Assembly: GCA_963790515.1 (NCBI GenBank)
Contig: CAWBPF010000005.1
Span: 119,916-183,915, forward strand
Length of the DNA: 64,000 nt
From: an uncultured Alphaproteobacteria bacterium
GTDB taxonomy: Bacteria; Pseudomonadota; Alphaproteobacteria; Acetobacterales; Acetobacteraceae
Direction: 5' to 3'
Under the pieces are notes generated by a model, which saw only the letters and a program-made list of their open reading frames with translations, was not told the DNA's origin and ran no database searches. Numbering within the stretch: the stretch's first letter is position 1; each line of letters starts with the position of its first letter. Positions 27,215 through 44,089 of the stretch are shown one piece after another. A program made the translations under genes and the position numbers.

Positions 27215-27430
27215 GCGCGCCGTCCGGAATGCAACGGCACACGCAACGAGAAACCCACCTGCCACCGCGGGCGCACCGCACGCCGATGCCAACCCGGCGA
27301 TTGAAGCCTTGCATTAACCCCCAGCTTCATGCGTTTCGTCATGCCTGCCGGTGCTGACCGACTCGGCGCGTCACGATACTCTCGCTTCGACACACCCCCG
27401 TCCGTCACCGCTCGAGGTCGACCCAGCCAT

Positions 27431-30400
27431 ATGCCGACGCCGTTCTCCTCTCAGGATCTAAGCCGTGTCTTCGATGCCCGCATCCTTACCCGAGGCCGCG
27501 GTCTGGGTCTCGCCGGCGGCGTGGACGTGCAGCTCGACGGCGACACCATCACCGCCACCGTCAAGGACCACGCCTTCACCTACGACGTCCGCATCACCCC
27601 CTCCCTGCTCGGACGCCGCGTCGTCTTCGACCATCGTTGCACCTGCCGCGTCCCCGGTTGCGCCCATCTCGCCGCCACCGCCTTCGCCGCGCTCGACCGG
27701 TTCCCAACGCTACGCAAACCCGAACAGCAGACCTTCCTCGACTCGCTGACCACAGCGCCGACGGAAAAAGAGCGGCAACGCATCGTCTTCGAACTCGCGC
27801 CGGCCGAACCGCCACACGCCTGCGTCGTCACCACCCTGCTGATCGGCGAGCGCACCGGCATCGCCACCCCGACCACCCCACGCCAGATCGCCGGCAACGA
27901 ACAGGCCGACCCGGCGATCCGCGACCTCGCCTACCTGCTGGGGGACGGGACCGAAACCCGCACCGGCGTTTCCGCCACCCTGGTGGTCGATCTCTTGGAC
28001 GCTCTCGTGGAAAGCGGCCATGCACGCTGGCACGCCGGCGGCCGCCGCCTGATCAAGGGCGAAACCCGTATCTTCGCCTCCGCCTCCGCCGCCACACTCC
28101 CACCCCGCTCCGGCGTGATCGTCGCCGATTCCGGTCCTTGGTATGTCGACGCCACAACCGGCGCCGTCGCCCGCGTCCGCATCCAACCCCCCGCTTCGCC
28201 CCCCAGGCCCGCCTTTGTGGCCCCCACGGCAGCCCCCGCCGCGCCACCAAAGCGCCGCCCCGATCCGGCGACGATCAGCGATCAAGTCATCGTCGACCGC
28301 CCGATGACGCCCGTCCTGCGCCTCACCCGCTTCCCCTGCCCTGACGAATTCGGCCGTCTGCAGCAACTGGACGCCCTGCTGCTGGAATTCGACTACGAGG
28401 GCGCCGCCATCCCATTCGACGACGATCGCCAGTTCGTCCGCGCCAACGGTCCCGACGGCCCGGTCTTCATCCGCCGCGACCGGGCAGCCGAGGCCGCCGC
28501 GCAGGACACCCTCCGCCAGGAAGGCCTGGTGCAAATGCGCATGGCCACCGGAAAATCCGAAAAAGGCCGCCTCGTCTTCGTCTTCCGCGGCCGCGAAGCC
28601 GCCGAAGCCTGGCAGGGCTTCGTCGCCGAACGCCTCCCATCCCTCCATGCGCTGGGTTGGCAGCAACCAGATCGACACCGATTTCGGCCCCCGCCTCGCC
28701 GAGAACATCGGCCTCTGCGACCTCAAGGTTGCCGATGCGCCAAAGGGCGCCTTTTCCCTCGATTTCGGCATCGAGATCGACGGCGTCCGCCATCCCCTGC
28801 TGCCCATCCTGATGCGCCTGCGGGAACGCGGCGGCATCGGCAGCCGCGCGGATCATCGACGGCGAAGTCGTCACCAGCCTGGAGGACGGCCGCATCCTGA
28901 AGCTGCCGGCCGATCGCATCGCCCGCCTGCTCGCGGTGATCGACGACCTGATCGAAGCCGCCGCGCGCACCACCGACGACACCCTGGTGCTGGACGCCGA
29001 CGCCGCACCCAGCGTGCTGGACCTGGAGGACATCGTCACCACCCGCTGGCAGGACGGCGCCGTCATCGCCGACGCACGTCGCCCGCTTCCGTCCCGTCGC
29101 CGACATCCCGCAGGCCGCCGGTCCCCGCCACCTTCACCGCCAGCCTGCGCCCCTATCAGCAGCAAGGCGTGAACTGGCTGCAGCATCTGCGCGCCAGAAC
29201 AACCTGGGCGGATTGCTCGCCGACGACATGGGCCTCGGCAAGACCGCCCAGACCATCGCCCACATCGCCATCGAGGAAGACGCCGGCCGCCTCGATCGAC
29301 CAGCCCTGGTCGTCGTGCCGACCAGCCTGGTGCCGAACTGGACCGCCGAACTCACCCGCTTCGCCCCCCACCTGCGCGTCGCCGTGCTGCACGGTCTCGA
29401 CCGCCACGAACGCGGCGCGACCTGACCGGCGTGCACGTCGTCATCACCACCTACACCGTGCTGGCGCGCGACATCGAGGACATGGCCGCGCTGCCCTGGC
29501 ACATGGTGGTGCTGGACGAGGCCCAGGCGATCAAAAGCCCGACCGCCAAGGCGACCCATGCGGTCTGCCGGCTGGACACCCGCCACCGCCTCTGCCTGTC
29601 CGGCACGCCGATCGAGAACAACCTCGGCGAGCTCTGGTCGCAGTTCGCCTTCCTGATGCCGGGCCTGCTCGGCCAGCGCAAAAGCTTCAACCGCCGCTTC
29701 CGCGCGCCGATCGAGAAAGACGGCGATCCCGGTCCGGCGCGGCCAGCTGGCCTCGCGCATCCGCCCGTTCATCCTGCGCCGCACCAAATCCGCCGTGGCC
29801 ACCGAACTGCCGCCGAAGCACACCATCCTGCGCCGCATCACCCTGGCCCCCGATCAGCGCGAACTCTACGAAACCATCCGGGCCACGATGCATGAGAAGG
29901 TGACGCCAGGGCATCGCCGCCCGCGGCGTCGGCGCAGAGCCATATGCTGGTGCTCGAGGCGCTGCTTGAAACTGCGCCAGGTCTGCTGCGATCCGCGCCT
30001 GGTCAAGCTTCCCTCCGCAAGGCTCGCCGACAGCTCAAGCAAGCTGGACGACCTGATGGAGATGGTGTCGGAGATGATCGCCGAAGGCCGCCGCGATCCT
30101 GTTGTTCTCCCAGTTCACCTCGATGCTCGACCTGATGAAGCCGGCGCTGACCGCCGCCGGCATCCGCTTCGTCGAACTGCGCGGCGACACCGTCGACCGC
30201 GCCGCACCGGTGCGCCGGTTCGAGGCCGGCGAGGTCCCGCTCTTCCTGATCAGCCTCAAGGCCGGCGGCCGCGGCCTGAACCTGACCTCCGCCGATACCG
30301 TCATCCATTACGATCCCTGGTGGAACCCCGCCGTCGAGGACCAGGCGTCCGACCGCGCCCACCGCATCGGCCAGACCAAATCGGTGTTCGTTTACAAGCT

Positions 30401-30563
30401 GATCGCGGCCGACACCGTGGAAGAACGCATCGTCGAATTGCAGGAACGCAAAGCCGCCTTGGCCACCCTTGCCCTGAGCGACGAAGGGATGGCGCTGCCG
30501 GAGATGGATGCGTCCGACATCGACTACCTGTTCGGCGTAACGCCGGATCTCCTGGCGGCGTAG
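27431..30563 (+). CDS. SWIM zinc-finger SNF2/DEAD-box helicase (several frameshifts)
   Basis: CTC...CAH SWIM; [71 protein letters not shown] spread across frames. Confidence 0.88.
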
Positions 30564-31205: not shown

Positions 31206-31961
31206 GTGCGTGTAGCGACTTTTAATGTGCATAAATGTGTCGGTCCGGATGGCGCCTACCGACCGGACCGCGTAGCGGCCGTTATCGCCGAACTGAACGC
31301 CGATCTGGTGGCGGTTCAGGAAGCCGACCAGCGGTTTGGCAAACGCAACGGCCTGCTCAATCCTGACCATCTGCTGCAAACCACCGGCATGCACCTGCTG
31401 TCGCAGTCGGATCTGCCAGGCGGTCACGGCTGGCACGGCAACACCCTGCTGGTCCGCCACAAGCCGGTTTCCTATTCCAGGCGCCGGCTCGCGCTGCCCG
31501 GCAAGGAAGCCCGCGGCGCCGTCGTCGCGGACATCGATTTCGGCTTCGGCCCGATCCGCTTCATCGCCACCCATATGGGTTTGCTCCGGAACTGCCGGTA
31601 TCAACAAGCCGGCGCCATCCTCTCCGCCCTGGCACGGCTTCCACCGCTGCCAACCGTCCTGCTCGGTGATCTCAACGAGTGGCGCTCCTGGCGCGGCCCC
31701 CTCAAGGTGTTCGAGCCATTCTTTGGCCGCGTCCAGGGCAGCCCAAGCTTTCCCTCCCGCATGCCTGTGCTGTCACTCGACCGTATCATGGGATGGCCGC
31801 GCGACCTCGTATCGAACGTGGAAACACACAAGACGCCGCTGGCCCGGGAGGCGTCGGATCACCTGCCGGTCAAAGCCATTTTGCGGCTGGAGGCAATGTC
31901 CACCGCAAACGACGATGCACTCGAAGCCCTCGTCGGAATAACGTCGGACCTGCAGATCTAG
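31206..31961 (+). CDS. Endonuclease/exonuclease/phosphatase family protein
   Basis: ATFNVH, DLVAVQEAD, GDLNEW, LDRI, ASDHLPV. Confidence 0.92.
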   Translation: MRVATFNVHKCVGPDGAYRPDRVAAVIAELNADLVAVQEADQRFGKRNGLLNPDHLLQTTGMHLLSQSDLPGGHGWHGNTLLVRHKPVSYSRRRLALPGKEARGAVVADIDFGFGPIRFIATHMGLLRNCRYQQAGAILSALARLPPLPTVLLGDLNEWRSWRGPLKVFEPFFGRVQGSPSFPSRMPVLSLDRIMGWPRDLVSNVETHKTPLAREASDHLPVKAILRLEAMSTANDDALEALVGITSDLQI

Positions 31962-32065
31962 GGCGCCCAGATCCAAGGCGCCCAAATCCAAGGCGCCCAG
32001 ACCCAACGCGCCCAGACCCAACGCGCCCAGACCCAACGCGCCCAGACCCAAGGCGCCCAGCTAGG
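31953..32065 (+). repeat. 15-bp tandem repeat, about 7.5 copies
   Basis: Units of CAGAYCCAASGCGCC; the first unit CAGATCTAGGGCGCC contains the EEP stop codon. Confidence 0.9.
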
Positions 32066-32505
32066 AAGCGCTGGGCCCGGCCAGCCGCCGCGGCCGGATC
32101 CGCACTCAGCGCGCCAGCAAATATCCGGATCAAACCCGCCGGGAAACGTTGGTAAAACTCGACAGCGGCAACCGGTCCCCGGCATGAGACAAAACGCCCG
32201 GCGGAACCTACACCGGATATCCCGACAGAACAGCCAAACCCTGCTCGGTCGCTTCCACACCAAAGTCGTCCACCAGGAAAACCTCGGATCTCTAGTTCGA
32301 CCGGACCACCAGTCAGTGCCCGATACCGTGCCGCTACTTGGAACTCTACAGTAACCGACAAACGGCACTGCAGCGATTGTTACAACGCAATTCCCAACCA
32401 CCGAACTCGCTTCGTCGCAAAAGTCCAGCCCCACCCTTGGTTTTCCATCGCCGCGAAACTGGTCTAGCGTCGCCCCCGACCGAAAGAGTCGATTGGAGGA
32501 TACGA

Positions 32506-33819
32506 ATGACGCCGGATTTTGAGAGTACCGTCATGCGCAAAGTGGCATGGCGCCTGATCCCCTTTCTTAGCATTGGCTACATGATCAATGCTCTCGACCG
32601 GTTCAACGTGTCGATGGCCGCGCTCACCATGAACAAGGACCTCGGCCTGAGCGCCAGCGCCTATGGTTTCGGGGCCGGAGCCTTCTTCTGGAGCTATATT
32701 CTATTCCAGTTCCCAGCCAATCTGATGCTCGCGCGAATTGGGGCACGCGTGTGGATCAGCCTCATTATGGCAACATGGGGCATATGTTCGGCCGGCACCT
32801 CCTTGATTACAGGAGAAACGAGTTTCGTTGCGGTCCGCGTTCTTCTCGGCGTCGCCGAGGCCGGATTTTTTCCCGGTGTCGCCTACTTCATGACATGCTG
32901 GTTCCCTGCGCTGCACCGAGGCCGCATGATGGGCATCTTCTATGCGGCCGGCGCATTCGCCGGTGTCCTCGGCGGCCCGCTCGGTGCCAACCTGCTGAAG
33001 CTGAACGGCACGTTTGGGCTGGCAGGCTGGCAATGGATCTTCGTGGTCGAGGGGATCCCCGCCATCCTGCTCGCGTTCTACGGCCTAGCAACCTTGTGTA
33101 ACCGGCCTGCCGAAGCCGGATGGCTCACCGCCGAACAACGCACATGGCTGCAGAACCGCCTCGACAGTGAAGCCGAAGCCAAATCCGGACACGGCAAAGG
33201 GCTACTGCAATCAATCGCCAATCCTCAGGTCGTGGCCCTGACTCTCGCCTATGTTCTTATCGCCTACGGTGTCTACGCCCTCGCATTCTTCCTCCCCCTC
33301 ATCGTCAAATCGCTCGGCCTGTCGAATACGGCGATCGGATATGTGCTGGTGCTGCCCAATATTTGCGGCACAGTCGGAATGATTCTGTGCTCCCGCAGTT
33401 CTGACCGCACAGGGGAGCGGATCTGGCACGTCGTCCTGCCGATTGTCTTGGCCGGGATCGGGGCAACCGTCGCCGCCCTGTCGCTCGGAAATATATACAT
33501 CGCAATGGCCGCCTTCTGCGTCGCCTTCTTCGGCATAGCGTCGTGCCTGCCGGTATTCTGGAACCTGCCAACCGCATATCTCGGCGCCGGTGCCGCGGCC
33601 GGCGGCATCGCCTTCATCAATTCGGTCGGCAACATCTCAGGCTACGCCGCACCACAGGTCACCGGATGGCTGCACGACGCGACCGGAGGCTACATGGTGG
33701 CCATGTTGGTGGCAGGCGTTGTCATGTGGACGGGCGGGGCGTTGATCCTGTTCTCCGGCATCGGCAAACACATTCCTCGGGAATCGCCGGTCCGGGGCAA
33801 CGCCCCCATCCTGCATTAG
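32506..33819 (+). CDS. MFS transporter, ACS/tartrate-phthalate permease family
   Basis: KVAWRLIPF...DRFNVSMA, LGVAEAGFFPG, GWQWIFVVEGIP, SDRTGER. Confidence 0.93.
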   Translation: MTPDFESTVMRKVAWRLIPFLSIGYMINALDRFNVSMAALTMNKDLGLSASAYGFGAGAFFWSYILFQFPANLMLARIGARVWISLIMATWGICSAGTSLITGETSFVAVRVLLGVAEAGFFPGVAYFMTCWFPALHRGRMMGIFYAAGAFAGVLGGPLGANLLKLNGTFGLAGWQWIFVVEGIPAILLAFYGLATLCNRPAEAGWLTAEQRTWLQNRLDSEAEAKSGHGKGLLQSIANPQVVALTLAYVLIAYGVYALAFFLPLIVKSLGLSNTAIGYVLVLPNICGTVGMILCSRSSDRTGERIWHVVLPIVLAGIGATVAALSLGNIYIAMAAFCVAFFGIASCLPVFWNLPTAYLGAGAAAGGIAFINSVGNISGYAAPQVTGWLHDATGGYMVAMLVAGVVMWTGGALILFSGIGKHIPRESPVRGNAPILH

Positions 33820-34317
33820 CGGCAACAGCGACAAAAGTGGTTCATCCGGGGCAGAGGAACAAAGCTATGACTGCGGCACGCACAACCGAAAGCCCTGGCC
33901 GAACTTCCAACCAGAATCCCGCCTGACGCCGCAAGATTGAACATCGCTGGCGCGGCGCGTCCGCACAGAGGATAACACACACCCGCCACCCTCGATCTTT
34001 CTCACCGACAAACGTCGCGCTGACCGGCGTGGTATCAGGCGTGCGCCGAACTGCGATCCTGAAGGGCAAGCTCGCCGCCCGCCCGAAGCTGGCGCCGCAC
34101 CCACGCCAACCCCCCAGCAACAGCGACGACCACACAGCCATCGGGCGCCTTCGTCGCCAGCGGCGCATCGAACACCAATCGCCCGCGATCTCCGCCTGCC
34201 ACGATCCACAGTCGGCGCGGCCCTGCGACCGACTGCCCGAGCAAAACATCCGCCAAAAACGAACCCGTCCCCGTGCATAAACGGCAAGGCCGAGCACCTC
34301 GCCACCTGCTCCCCAGC

Positions 34318-35454
34318 CTACCGCAGCGCGATTGCCTCGCCCACCACCGACGCCACCCGCCCCGTCGGCTCGAACGGCGCCAGATCCATCAACCCCGCCT
34401 GCCCCGTCACCAGATCCGCCAGCAGCCGCCCGGCGAACGGACCGATGGTCAGCCCAGCCGCCCCAAGCCCGTTGCCAACCGCCAGGCCGGCAACCCCCTC
34501 CATCCACCCCAGCAACGGTCGCACCGCCGCACCCACAGGACGAAATCCAACCCGCGTCTCCAGCATCGTCGCCACATCGAGACCCGGAGCAATCCGCAGC
34601 GCCTCGGACAACACCTCCGCCTGTCCCGCCGCCGTCACCCGATAATCAAACCCGGACCCGGTTTCCCGTGTCGCACCCGCGACGATCCGGCCGCCGTCGA
34701 ACGGCACGATGTAATGGCTGCCCGGCGGCAGGATCACCGGCCAGTCCCGGGTCTCCACGCCCTCCAGTCGCAGATGCACGATCTGACCGCGCTGCGGTTC
34801 GATCGCCATCCCAAGCCCCAAAGGCCGCAGCACCGCGTTGACCCAGGCGCCAGCCGTGACGATCACCCGATCGGCGGCCAGCCGCTCGCCGTCCGCATCC
34901 ACGCCCACCACGCGCCCCGCCTCCACCACCGGCGCCGCATGGGCCTGCAGGATCGAAGCCCCATGCCACGCAGCCGCCCGCAGCAGCGCAGCCGCCAGAC
35001 GCCGCCCGTCAACCCGCGCACCCCCGGCCACATGCACCCCGCCAAACCCGGGACGCAGCGGAGGAAACAGCGCCCGCGCCTCCGCCGGCGACATCCTCCC
35101 GACCGCTCCCATCGCCGGCACAGAACACTGCCTGGCCAGCCGCTCCAGCCACGCCAGTTCCTCGGCATCGTCGGACACCAGCATCGCCCCCGCCCGCCGG
35201 TAACCCAGATCAGTCTCGCCCGCCGCCGCCAGAGCCGCGATCAGCTCCGGGTAATACTCGCCGCCAGCCGCATACAGCCGGTAGAAAACCGCATCCTTCA
35301 CCCCGGACACCCAGGGGCATATGATGCCGGCGCCGGCCGCCGTGGCCCGCCCGTCCAAGGCTGCATCGACAACGGTGACCGTTGCCCCCGTCGCGGCAAG
35401 ATGGAAGGCCGCACTGGCCCCAAGCACGCCGGCCCCGATAATGACAATCCGCAT
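34318..35454 (-). CDS. FAD-dependent oxidoreductase, DAAO/DadA superfamily, YurR-like
   Basis: IIGAGVLGASAAFHLA, GRATAAGAGIICPW, VTAGAW, VAGATRE, RVGFRP, NGLGAAGLTIGP. Confidence 0.9.
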   Translation of the reverse strand: MRIVIIGAGVLGASAAFHLAATGATVTVVDAALDGRATAAGAGIICPWVSGVKDAVFYRLYAAGGEYYPELIAALAAAGETDLGYRRAGAMLVSDDAEELAWLERLARQCSVPAMGAVGRMSPAEARALFPPLRPGFGGVHVAGGARVDGRRLAAALLRAAAWHGASILQAHAAPVVEAGRVVGVDADGERLAADRVIVTAGAWVNAVLRPLGLGMAIEPQRGQIVHLRLEGVETRDWPVILPPGSHYIVPFDGGRIVAGATRETGSGFDYRVTAAGQAEVLSEALRIAPGLDVATMLETRVGFRPVGAAVRPLLGWMEGVAGLAVGNGLGAAGLTIGPFAGRLLADLVTGQAGLMDLAPFEPTGRVASVVGEAIALR

Positions 35455-35456
35455 GA

Positions 35457-35535
35457 CATCTCCCTTCGCTGGCATGACCCAGAGCAGGTTCACGGGTGTG
35501 ATCTCAGCCCTCACTGCGAAGGCACCCCGGTGCAG
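35457..35535 (-). promoter_or_regulatory. TPP riboswitch (THI element)
   Basis: Minus strand GGGGTGCC-ttcgcagtgag-GGCTGAGATCACACCCGTGAACCTGCTCTGGGTCATGCCAGCGAAGGGA matches the conserved CTGAGA...ACCC...ACCTG...ATGCCAGCGNAGGGA core; its 3' end overlaps the SD just before ATG 35454. Confidence 0.92.
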
Positions 35536-35864
35536 CCTTCACTTTCGCCCTGACGGCCCCGATGTCAAGCCGACCGCCCCACGCTTCCAAGCCGCCCACC
35601 GGCCCCCGGTGACCGAGAACACCCGCCACGGACTATCCGCGGCAGCGGTCCCGCTCCCCGGCGACGAAACCGCAGAGGTCCGCACGCAAATCACACACGA
35701 TCGCCACCACCAACCGCCTCCACCGAACCGCTCGGTCATTCGAACGATTGAAACGACCCATCCGCCGCACACCGCCCCACCCAGCCTCATGTCCCGGAAT
35801 ATGGCGGACAACCGCACGCCCTGATAAGGATTTCCCCATCCCGAGCATTTGGAGTGTCCAACAG

Positions 35865-39667: not shown

Positions 39668-40960
39668 ATGGCGATCGATTTCGAAGCCGCAGTCATGCGC
39701 AAGGTCGCCTGGCGGCTCGTGCCCTTTCTCAGCGTCGGCTACCTGATCAACGCGCTCGACCGGTTCAACATATCGATCGCCGCGCTGACCATGAACAAGG
39801 CCCTCGGCCTCACCGCCACCGATTATGGCCTGGCCGCCGGTGCGTTCTTCTGGAGCTACGTCCTCTGCCAGGTCCCCGCCAACCTGATCCTGGGCAAACT
39901 CGGCGCCCGGACCTGGCTCACCGTCATCATGGCGGTCTGGGGCCTGGCCTCCGCCGGCACCGCCCTCGTCACCGGCGAAGTCACCTTCGTCGCCGCCCGC
40001 TTCCTGCTCGGTATGGCCGAGGCCGGCTACTTCCCCGGCGTCGCCTTCTTCATGACCTGCTGGTTCCCCGCCCTGTACCGAGGCCGGATGATGGGCATCT
40101 TCTTCGCCTTCAGCGCCGTCTCCAGCGTGATCGGCGCCCCCTTGTCGGCAAACCTGCTGCGGCTCGACGGCTGGTTCGGCGTGGCCGGCTGGCAGTGGAT
40201 CTTCCTGGTGGAAGGCGCCCCGGCGGTGCTGCTGGCCATGTTCGGCTACGCCCTGCTGCGCAACCGCCCGGCCGAGGCCCCCTGGCTCAACCCCGATGAA
40301 CGCCAGTGGCTGCAGAACCGCCTGGACCAGGAGACCGTGGCAAAACCAACCCACGGCAAGGGCGTGCTGCGGGCGATCCTGAACCCGCGGATCATCGTGC
40401 TCACCATCGCCTTCACCTTCACCCTGTACGGCGTCTATTCAACGATCTTCTTCCTGCCGCTGATCATCAAAAGCCTGGGCCTGTCTAATCTCGCGGTCGG
40501 ATACGTCAGCGCGCTGCCCAACCTGTTCGGCGCCGTCGGCATGATCCTCGTCTCGCGCAGTTCCGACCGCACCGGCGAACGCCTGTGGCACGTCGTCTGT
40601 CCGGTCACGATCGCCGGCCTCGGCCTGCTGGCCGCCGCGTTTTCTTTGGGCAACGTCTACATCGCCATGGTGGCATTCTGCATCGCCGGCTTTGGCCTGT
40701 CCTCGACCCTGCCGGTATTCTGGAACCTGCCCACGGCCTATTTCGGTTCAGCGACCGCCGCCGCCGGCCTCGCCGCCATCAACACCATGGGCAACCTGTC
40801 CGGCTACGTCGCACCCCAGGTCATGGGGATCGTGCACGACGCCACCGGAGGATACCTCATACCGGTGTTGATGGCTGGCGCAATCACCCTGGCAGCGCCC
40901 GTGCTGATCCTCGCCTCCGGCATCCGCCGCCACGTCCAGCGCCCGGCGGCAAGGTCGTAA
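39668..40960 (+). CDS. MFS transporter, paralog of 32506..33819
   Basis: Colinear and highly similar (GYLINALDRFN, MTCWFPA.YRGRMMGIF, SDRTGER, PVFWNLPTAY). Confidence 0.93.
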   Translation: MAIDFEAAVMRKVAWRLVPFLSVGYLINALDRFNISIAALTMNKALGLTATDYGLAAGAFFWSYVLCQVPANLILGKLGARTWLTVIMAVWGLASAGTALVTGEVTFVAARFLLGMAEAGYFPGVAFFMTCWFPALYRGRMMGIFFAFSAVSSVIGAPLSANLLRLDGWFGVAGWQWIFLVEGAPAVLLAMFGYALLRNRPAEAPWLNPDERQWLQNRLDQETVAKPTHGKGVLRAILNPRIIVLTIAFTFTLYGVYSTIFFLPLIIKSLGLSNLAVGYVSALPNLFGAVGMILVSRSSDRTGERLWHVVCPVTIAGLGLLAAAFSLGNVYIAMVAFCIAGFGLSSTLPVFWNLPTAYFGSATAAAGLAAINTMGNLSGYVAPQVMGIVHDATGGYLIPVLMAGAITLAAPVLILASGIRRHVQRPAARS

Positions 40961-41561: not shown

Positions 41562-43363
41562 CTACTGCAACCGATCCCGCAAGCGCCGGCGGCCCAACGT
41601 CCGCACCTCCGCATCCGGCGCCATCGCCTTGATCGCCGCCTGCATCTCCGCCCGCTTCTCGTGGATGGACGCAATCACCGGCCCCATCGCCACGCCCACG
41701 TCCACCAGCACCGCCTCGGACAGCTGCAAGCTCGCCTCGATCGTCTCCGGCACGGCATCGGACGCGCCGATCCGATACAGGTGCGCCGCATGCGCTGCAT
41801 CGCGGGCCCGCGCGACAATCAGCAGGTCCGCACGTTCCGCCCGAGCCCCGGCCACCAGCGCGTCAACCGCCTCGGAATCGTCCATGCGTCACCACCAGGG
41901 CACGCGCGGTGTCCAGGTGAACCCGCCGCAACAACTCGATCCGCGTCATGTCGCCGAAATAGACCGGCTTGCCCAGCCGCCGCTGGCCGGCAACCCGGTG
42001 CGGCATCGCTGTCAATCGCGACAAAAGCGACGTTGTGGGTGTCCAGCATTGCCGCCACCGTCTGCCCAACCCGGCCAAACCCCGCGACGATCACCCGCGG
42101 CAGCCCATCGGAAATCTCCGGCACCCGCAGCTCCGCATCGACCGCCGCCTGTGGCGTCAGATACGGTGCCAGCCAGGTCCCCAGCTTCGACAGCAGCGGA
42201 ATCGTCGCCATCGTCACCGCCGTGATGAACCGCACCGCGCTGGCGGTGGCCGGCGTCAGCAGGCGCTCGCCCGCAGCCAGCGAAACGATCACGAAGCCGA
42301 ACTCCCCACCCGGTCCCAGTAGCAGCCCGGTCCGCAAACCGGCCGCCCAGTTCAAACCGAAACTGCGCATGGCCGGCGCCACGACCAGAAGTTTCATCAG
42401 CACAACGCACACAGCCCCGCCGGCGATCAGCCCCGGCTGGGCAGCCAGGATACGAATATCCAGGCTCATGCCGATCGAGATCAGGAACACTCCGACGAAC
42501 AGGCCCTTGAACGGTTCGATCGTCACCTCGATCTGGCGGCGATATTCCGTGCCCGCCAGCAGCAGCCCGCCGATCAGCGCCCCCAGAGGCATCGACAGGC
42601 CCGCGGCGGCGGACGCAAGGCCGGTGGAAATCACCACCAGCAGGCACGCCGCCATGAACAGCTCCGCGCTGCGGGTGTGGGCGACGCTGCGAAACAACGG
42701 CCGCAGCACGAGCCGGCCAAGCGCCACGATCGCCGCCACCGCCAGCACCGCCTGGCCAACGGCGAGACCAACGTCGGCGGCGCTGCCCGCATGGTTGCCC
42801 GGGTCCAGCGCAGCCACCGCGAACAGCACCGGCACCACGGCAAGATCCTGGAACAGCAGAATGGCGAAGGCCGCCCGGCCGGTCGGCGTGTTAAGCCGCT
42901 TCTCCTCCGCCAGAACCTGGATCACCACCGCCGTCGAGGACATCGCCAGCGCCAGTCCGATCACCAGGCCGGCGTGCCACTCAAACCCGAACCAGATCGC
43001 GCCCGCGGCCAGCACGGTGGAGCACAGCACGACCTGCGCGCAGCCCAGCCCGAACACCAGCCGCCGCATCACCCATAATCGCTCGAACGACAGTTCCAGC
43101 CCGATCATGAACAGCAGCAGCGCCACCCCAAGCTCCGCGATCGGTTCGATCGCATCCGGCTCGGTCAACGTCACCGCACGCAGCCACGGCTGCTGCGGCG
43201 CCAGCGAGACCACGCCGAACGGGCCAACAACGATGCCGACCAGCATGAAACCAAGCACCGGACTGACCCGCAGCCGATGAAACAGCGGGATCACGACACC
43301 CGCGGCACCCAGGACAACCAGCGCTTCCTTGTAGACCGACGTGTCGAGCGTATGGGCTTCCAT
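41562..43363 (-). CDS. CPA2 cation:proton antiporter, KefB/KefC-like (frameshifts near 41880-42010)
   Basis: AELGVALLLFMIGLELS, SSTA, ILLFQDLAVVP, GGEFGFV, VAGFGRVGQ TrkA-N; C-terminal ARARD...PETIEASLQL in another frame. Confidence 0.9.
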
Positions 43364-43684
43364 GCCGGCAGTCTAAAGCAGCCCCCGCCCCACTGGAACC
43401 GTCCGGCTGGCAAAGCAGGGCACCAAAACAACAAGCTAACTGCACCCGGGCCAGACGTTCGTCGCCGTCCATCGGCGAACATCCGACCAGCCGGCAGGCC
43501 ATAGGCGAATCGCCTCGCGTCACCACCCCGGCGGCACGCACGTTGTCGACCATCAGGTTCGGCCGCCCGGATCGCCCGCACCCCGCCCCGTAGGATCGAA
43601 TGCACCGGCCGCCACCGGATGGATCGCCTTGCGCCGCCGCGACAGGCGAATAATCTGCCCGTTCAACCGACGGATAGGCGGCCC

Positions 43685-44089
43685 ATGCAGACCGGCTCGA
43701 CAATGGCGCTACCCGCCGCCCACGACGTCATCGCCCCGGACGGATCACAGGTCCGGATTCTCCTGTCCCTCACCGGCGGCAGCATGGCGCATTTCCTGCT
43801 CCCCGCCGGCCAGGTTTCCCGCGCCGTGCGGCACCGGACCGTGGAGGAAATCTGGTATGTCGTCTCAGGATCCGGCGAGATGTGGCGATCGGCCGGCACC
43901 ACGCAGCACATCCACCGCATGACCCCCGGCACGTGCCTGACGATCCCGGTCGGCGTCGCATTTCAGTTCCGCGCGTCGGACCACGAACCATTGGCGGCCG
44001 TCGCCGTCACCATGCCGCCATGGCCCGGGGAAAACGAGGCGGAAATGGTCGAAGGAACATGGCAACCAACGGCATCGGACGACCGCTGA
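43685..44089 (+). CDS. Cupin-domain protein
   Basis: APDGSQVRIL, AVRHRTVEEIWYVVSGSGEMWR, IPVGVAFQFR, TMPPWPG. Confidence 0.85.
   Translation: MQTGSTMALPAAHDVIAPDGSQVRILLSLTGGSMAHFLLPAGQVSRAVRHRTVEEIWYVVSGSGEMWRSAGTTQHIHRMTPGTCLTIPVGVAFQFRASDHEPLAAVAVTMPPWPGENEAEMVEGTWQPTASDDR

Follow-up and report, generated by a model that had tools for sequence, protein, structure and literature searches.

The window, that is, the whole 64,000-nt stretch of DNA analysed here, carries on its reverse strand a gene for an FAD-dependent oxidoreductase preceded by a thiamine diphosphate (TPP) riboswitch (Table 1). The family tree and protein names place the genome near Rhodopila and Acidisphaera, within the Acetobacteraceae. 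The oxidase gene is flanked by one for an MFS transporter in convergent orientation and one for a Kir-type channel in divergent orientation, so that neither a thi gene nor a co-oriented transporter follows it, and the gene stands alone, as a first reading made from the letters without database searches (the sequence-only reading) had described it. The terminator-like hairpin itself (34284-34265) is a weak call on its own, since the consensus scan returned 4 such sites in 2.2 kb vs 1.8 expected. In the genome of the window (G000), the oxidase gene is an intact ORF despite suspected indel errors in the assembly; such errors are suggested by genes that are read in pieces, namely those for an SNF2-type helicase and a Kef-like antiporter (window 27329-30563, 41819-43703), thiD (G000:C41:145494-146256) and tenA (G000:C23:34667-35155).

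Table 1. Features of the riboswitch-led oxidase gene, with positions in the window
Feature	Position	Strand	Basis and remarks
IdaA/YurR-family FAD-dependent oxidoreductase, 378 aa	34318..35454	(-)	ORF, Pfam, AlphaFold/Foldseek
TPP riboswitch aptamer, short type without P3a	35443..35539	(-)	RF00059 match; stems span ~35533-35455
Shine-Dalgarno-like AGGGAG	35460..35465	(-)	aptamer P4 3' strand and junction; sequence and Rfam structure line
Predicted sigma-70 -35 box TTGACA	35563..35568	(-)	TTGAC conserved in relatives
Predicted -10 box GAAAGT, 16-nt spacer	35541..35546	(-)	read from sequence; similar hexamers there in relatives
Terminator-like hairpin and U-rich tail	34255..34284	(-)	consensus scan; 34 nt past stop codon

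The aptamer matched the Rfam family RF00059 with 54.5 bits (E 6.6e-8), a thin margin above the gathering score of 54.3 bits that served as threshold for the covariance-model score, and was the sole gathering-level RNA match in the Rfam scan of the window; its orthologous copies scored between 50.2 and 72 bits. The AGGGAG motif lies within the 3' end of the aptamer, 5 nt upstream of the ATG at 35454, and in relatives the start codon comes 6-9 nt downstream of the conserved GA, so that both the aptamer and its overlap with a Shine-Dalgarno-like site, as initially proposed, were recovered. Upstream, 34 of 35 distinct copies have TTGAC at a distance of 38-40 nt from the aptamer core, with a variable spacer, and a generic promoter scan made no call for the TTGACA box; from the predicted promoter, the transcript would begin at about P1 of the aptamer. 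Across the 35 distinct aptamers, the UGAGA junction, the P2-P5 stems and AGGGA were conserved, P3 was maintained with a variable loop, and P1 was weak, with mostly 3-5 of 5 pairs. P4 and P5 were invariant and therefore provided no covariation evidence, and comparison of folding energies with those of shuffled sequences gave no signal (z 0.4-1.6).

The 378-aa product matched the Pfam DAO family (E 2.4e-55), in line with the DAAO-superfamily assignment made initially, and the motifs AGAGIICPW, WPVILPP and NGLGAAGLTIGP on which that assignment was refined are all present in its translation. It remained under every NCBIfam cut-off, the best model being ThiO (TIGR02352) with 175.6 bits where the cut-off stands at 250.8, a model with which true ThiO proteins of the same bacterial family (long type) reach 343-371 bits. 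Among solved structures, its closest relative in sequence was IdaA of Chelativorans sp. BNC1 (PDB 6PXS, E 1.4e-113), the next entry reaching at best 4.6e-33 and the glycine oxidases 1e-16 to 1e-33. IdaA was also the top Foldseek match of the AlphaFold model (pLDDT 89.6), with a TM of 0.93, 52% identity and an rmsd of 1.5 A, and the two proteins have the motifs AGAG..CPW, GATRE, GFRP and NGLG..GLT.GP in common; the clade of the oxidase deviates from IdaA at F57, P244, G245 and A333. The next structural neighbours were glycine oxidases (TM 0.82-0.86), including ThiO (1NG3, 4YSH; TM 0.84-0.86), which displays the same fold but, as for other solved glycine oxidases, only 20-28% identity (1NG3: TM 0.84, 21%).

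At the active site, W48, Y248, R263, E264 and R305 were invariant among 123 family rows. Y248 and R305 are kept as in ThiO, whereas R263 is lacking in the latter, and the GH.RNG motif of ThiO is replaced, its second arginine aligning with A332. Work on Orf1/ThiO assigned a role to two active-site arginines (PMC10156733); mapped by alignment onto R305 and A332, this pair (GFRP-type and GH.RNG) would be represented by its first member only. In a quick tree of 43 rows, IdaA/YurR (28 rows) and ThiO (11 rows) formed separate branches with an SH-aLRT of 100, and the oxidase is monocistronic, outside the thiS-thiG operon, which lies at G000:C7:337538-338605. By its best sequence and structure matches and its shared invariant residues, the oxidase thus falls in the YurR-like family that includes IdaA and not in ThiO, as the sequence-only reading had anticipated. 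Bacillus homologs grouped in this same family, and the B. subtilis homolog, 48% identical across 97% of the length, sits between sspG and an excision endonuclease gene, a gene order from which we take it to be yurR. The description of the family as an orphan was mistaken, because IdaA is a characterised member: it converts iminodiacetate to glycine and EDDA to ethylenediamine, with glyoxylate released at each step, in the course of EDTA/NTA breakdown (PMC7312458), and IdaA is the only member for which, in that source, iminodiacetate/EDDA oxidation is established. Two other identities were set aside: D-amino acid dehydrogenase DadA, a label that many orthologs carry in JGI (NF001933, 73.9 bits vs a cut-off of 383), and a hidden thiO on G000:C18, which scored 148 bits and had neither thi neighbours nor the GH.RNG motif.

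The association of switch and gene was restricted to a single clade. An oxidase-family gene was present in 63 of the 401 Acetobacteraceae genomes, and an RF00059 search, which left three of these 63 genomes without any TPP match, found the switch beside it in 10. In a separate set of 80 loci of family members, including 50 from Bacillota, the switch was found on 2. None was detected on these 50 Bacillota loci, on 12 further Bacillus loci, on the 8 Actinomycetota loci (8 of 391 sampled genomes carry the gene) or on the 3 other carrier loci in a 400-genome sample of Alphaproteobacteria, nor on the Chelativorans J32 relative of IdaA; three TPP matches in Bhargavaea lay ~6 kb from the gene, on the opposite strand. 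We therefore found no independent recruitment in the class, Actinomycetota or Bacillota loci searched. In a quick tree of 104 rows, from which duplicates and the frameshifted L023 were excluded, the 11 switch-bearing rows all fell inside one 17-row clade (SH-aLRT 93), the remainder consisting of two decayed leaders and four rows without leader; with L023, whose oxidase gene is frameshifted (L023:6001-7135), 12 of the 18 members retain an intact switch. This distribution points to one gain followed by several losses. The clade covers at least three genera with different neighbour genes; flanking genes vary by genus, and none was a thi gene in the loci read.

Metagenomes extended this clade: 31 loci combined the aptamer end with the gene start, a count without denominator from a pattern that demanded only the last 10 letters of the aptamer and the gene start and could catch only closely spaced, clade-like starts. 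The full-length products of these loci were all nearest to the clade, two short fragments having other best matches, and the 5' half of the aptamer, which lies outside the pattern, was complete in 29 of the 31, the other two being cut by contig ends. Prediction of a switch upstream of homologs was hence borne out inside the clade and on none of the loci searched outside it, which leaves the proposed assignment of a function to the whole family unsupported and does not allow the thiamine link to be extended to YurR.

Within the clade, conservation was marked. The ligand-binding core was invariant in the 35 distinct aptamer copies while the coding sequences had reached a dS of 0.25-1.3 (dN/dS 0.12-0.39, 12 pairs), which argues that the aptamer is not a chance match despite its thin score margin. 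In three genomes of one genus (L088-L090), ~100-135 nt were inserted between aptamer and gene; the insertions in L088, L089 and L090 are ORFs of 34, 44 and 34 codons, each ending in TGATG on the gene start, and would keep control through translational coupling. Among the top 120 homologs, 16 of the 17 with an N-terminal extension translate the 3' end of the aptamer. Decayed remnants, from which UGAGA and the -35 box are gone, were found in Rhodopila globiformis (L005:5915-6000) and at L004:5960-6000, where only an aptamer trace persists. The R. globiformis leader was considered as a variant riboswitch on account of a weak sequence likeness (nhmmer E 2.9e-4) but obtained 2 bits with the covariance model, and is therefore read as decayed. 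Pairs involving switch-less clade members had a dN/dS of 0.18-0.29, indicating similar purifying selection. Judged on this sequence conservation, the oxidase gene would be a new member of the TPP regulon, confined to one clade.

Published regulon descriptions are in line with this novelty. In a survey based on RegPrecise, 20 biosynthesis genes are recorded as TPP-controlled, none of them of the IdaA/YurR family; a search of its supplement for yurR and COG0665 gave none among the matches listed, and the TPP regulon tabulated there for B. subtilis does not include yurR (PMC3766115). B. subtilis also possesses its own ThiO, recovered as a search control. A literature search, to which most subscription papers were closed, returned no report of TPP control of an IdaA/YurR gene.

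The origin of the leader was sought among other TPP leaders. The thiO-thiS-thiG leaders of three alphaproteobacterial genomes (G011, G151 and G212), in which thiO is the first gene, proved near-identical in sequence to the oxidase aptamer and displayed the same AGGGAG overlap. With a profile built from 34 clade aptamers, these three ranked top among 35 other TPP leaders (56.9, 48.8 and 48.4 bits), the next scoring 31.9 bits and thiC leaders at most 28.8. When P3a was omitted, thiO leaders still came first (26-27 vs at most 24 bits; within-clade mean 32; 32 of 35 scored). A 4-nt junction, UCAU or UCAC, was shared by 31 of 35 clade copies and 6 of 7 long-type thiO leaders and by 0 of 28 other leaders, and the top match among 72,556 plasmid records was again a thiO-thiS-thiG leader, from Azospirillum, with the same overlap on the start. 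In G011, the switch precedes a true thiO; the IdaA-like gene of this genome has none. Leaders of the short aptamer type are not restricted to thiO, since in other phyla weaker matches precede tenA, thiD-tenA and a permease gene, and the promoter boxes of the oxidase leader differ from those of thiO leaders. This likeness suggests, and does not prove, that the oxidase gene took over a thiO leader.

Two features of the thiO loci themselves deserve mention. In the thiO genes of G011, G151 and G212 (L206, L229 and L231), an in-frame ATC lies 7 nt past AGGGAG in 3/3 and two of them have no ATG ahead of the FAD motif, so that translation may start at ATC. Four other thiO TPP leaders (L225:2658-2754, L227:2583-2679, L228:1375-1471 and L226:2608-2733) have an altered or expanded P5 region and reach only 18-34 bits with model R1, as variant or decaying switches.

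The C2-N3 unit of the thiazole of thiamine is dehydroglycine, supplied by ThiO or ThiH (PMC3020362; PMC11223231). All 12 switch-bearing genomes encode ThiG, with thiG adjoining thiS and, in the loci read, without a neighbouring thiO (in one, G267:C21:221750-222485, thiG is in two frames). ThiO was not found above its cut-off in any of 22 genomes, including these 12, with 58 candidates scored per genome, nor was ThiH in the 5 switch-bearing genomes checked; ThiD and ThiE were present in 5/5 and a ThiF-family gene in 2/2. With true ThiO as query, the oxidase gene was itself the best match in G000 and G357 (30-33% identity). The single further TPP switch in G000, which is 68.85% complete, precedes a ThiC-like ORF. 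The combination of thiS-thiG without ThiO and an aptamer most like thiO leaders is newly seen here. The role in thiamine metabolism proposed from the sequence thus holds better in one of its forms, a source of dehydroglycine, because the switch-bearing genomes are without ThiO, than as salvage of thiazole or thiamine, which is weakened by the absence of ThiM and ThiN (4/4 genomes checked).

This gap is wider than the distribution of the oxidase. ThiO-like matches occurred in 94 of the 401 family genomes (5 candidates scored per genome) and coincided with an oxidase-family gene in 2, vs 14.8 expected, a contrast inflated by kinship; the predicted anti-correlation with thiO is thereby found, in a confounded form. 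A counter-sample was formed by the first 60 of the 246 family genomes having neither a ThiO-like match nor an oxidase-family gene. ThiG was present in 54 of these, a divergent thiO lay beside thiG in 2 when 20-28 candidates were scored, and 52 of the 60 accordingly combine ThiG with the absence of both a ThiO match and an IdaA/YurR gene (ThiH having been checked only in 5 other genomes), which contradicts a simple one-for-one replacement of thiO. Likewise, five genomes of the carrier genera that are 93-100% complete (G140, G229, G298, G017 and G071) have ThiG and no match to the oxidase gene. In such relatives, either another source must exist or ThiG must be idle without supply. The oxidase thus cannot account for the gap in general; at most, it would be a supplier that serves one clade and is not essential there.

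Taking these observations together, we give about even chances to the oxidase having been recruited to provide ThiG with dehydroglycine, in place of the absent ThiO and without being essential. Direct sequestration of the ribosome-binding site is a known mode of TPP riboswitches. A sigma-70 promoter would start the transcript at the aptamer and, when thiamine diphosphate is plentiful, P4 and P1 would form over the ribosome-binding site and turn translation off. At low TPP, the enzyme would be made and would oxidise glycine to dehydroglycine (iminoglycine) for the thiazole synthase ThiG. Historically, an ancestral catabolic amine oxidase would have gained a thiO-type leader once, and would have been retained as a regulated booster atop a background source also available to relatives. 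IdaA attacks N-substituted glycines at the C-N bond, with release of glyoxylate, and ThiO carries out this oxidation on unsubstituted glycine, so that only a shift of substrate would be required. Glycine as substrate is nevertheless the weakest link, since an alignment comparison revealed no residue that distinguishes switch-bearing from switch-less clade members.

In favour of this dehydroglycine role are the invariance of the core at such coding divergence across a clade of at least three genera, which points to conservation under selection; the pathway gap; the likeness of the leader to thiO leaders and the putative coupling ORFs after insertions; the placement of the switch in G011; the low overlap with ThiO-like genes, confounded as it is by kinship; and, by analogy, the chemistry of IdaA (PMC7312458) together with the glycine oxidases as next structural neighbours. 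Against it are the family-wide gap, the 6 of 18 clade members that have no intact switch and yet keep the gene under purifying selection, the IdaA-like appearance of the active site (A332, R263), the absence of adjoining thi genes in the loci read, the occurrence of the short aptamer type ahead of other genes, and the single gain, with no independent recruitment found.

Several of these objections would be met if the leader had been captured by an enzyme with an unrelated job, i.e. if this enzyme broke down N-carboxymethyl or other imino acids in the manner of IdaA, with TPP control being incidental or a general metabolic signal. We regard this explanation as unlikely, but it accounts for the active site being the same as that of IdaA at the invariant positions, for the repeated loss of the switch with retention of the gene, for the many thiG genomes that manage without an oxidase gene, and for the neighbourhoods of switch-less family members, which follow peptide/opine ABC operons or acyl-CoA catabolic genes. 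One would however expect an incidental switch to be lost by decay, as happened in L004 and L005, whereas all 35 copies have retained an unaltered core despite near-saturated dS, and coupling ORFs are present after insertions; moreover, the genes of known TPP regulons serve the synthesis and transport of thiamine (PMC3766115). As an observation on the switch-less IdaA/YurR genes themselves, those at L014, L028, L038 and L239 often follow peptide/opine ABC operons, one of these loci also carrying RidA and hydroxy-acid oxidases, which hints at catabolism of modified amino acids.

Somewhat less probable still is a salvage of the pyrimidine side, in which thiamine breakdown would yield an N-substituted aminomethylpyrimidine for the enzyme to cleave, the product being recycled by TenA and ThiD. 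Oxidation of secondary amines suits the family, many thiamine damage products are without known fate (PMC11223231), and ThiD (5/5) and TenA-like genes (9/12) occur in switch-bearing genomes; TenA is nonetheless equally frequent among genomes that do not carry the switch (17 of 22), hence not discriminating, and is neither TPP-led nor adjacent in switch-bearing genomes. In addition, no TPP-led transporter accompanies the oxidase gene in these genomes, ThiM and ThiN are missing as noted above, and the leader is closer to thiO leaders than to the salvage and transport leaders tested.

Finally, ThiG is able to use glyoxylate and ammonia, and IdaA-like action on iminodiacetate-type substrates could supply the thiazole indirectly, through released glyoxylate (with ammonia) or glycine. 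This route would fit the retained IdaA residue set and the release of glyoxylate and glycine by IdaA (PMC7312458), and the pathway gap and thiO-type leader apply to it equally, but we consider it the most improbable of all, as it needs an environmental substrate while no transporter is linked to the gene in the clade, and as free glyoxylate has other cellular sources, which makes dedicated TPP control harder to explain.

A comparable case is OarX, a TPP-regulated reductase outside the canonical pathway that was placed in thiamine metabolism by genomics alone (PMC11223231). The oarX gene is found in clusters with thi genes across diverse bacteria, in contrast to the oxidase gene, which stands alone in one clade, and the experimental exclusion of five proposed salvage roles for OarX calls for caution here (PMC11223231). 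If the oxidase does make dehydroglycine, it would be a new thiamine enzyme and would clearly exemplify recruitment through the capture of a leader; a relative of the EDTA-degrading IdaA would thereby gain a natural role, and YurR in Bacillus would still be left unexplained. In broader terms, we put slightly below even the claim that an IdaA/YurR oxidase with a captured thiO leader is a third kind of dehydroglycine-forming enzyme beside ThiO and ThiH, and that it marks a family-wide gap, ThiG operating without a known C2-N3 source in most non-acetic Acetobacteraceae. With 52 of the 60 selected Acetobacteraceae having ThiG and no ThiO match, this dehydroglycine gap reaches beyond the oxidase finding.

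Other TPP switches and other parts of the window also yielded observations. In other Acetobacteraceae, TPP switches lead peptide-type ABC substrate-binding proteins at L208, L212, L214, L217 and L218, with the same leader type at L210, and an EamA-like membrane protein at L216; these proteins, named by inspection of their sequences, are candidate transporters of thiamine or its precursors. Within the window, two similar MFS transporter genes occur within 8 kb (32506-33819 and 39668-40960), and the gap after an endonuclease/phosphatase gene (31960-32130) contains short tandem repeats that give LGALG or RPDPT runs when translated.
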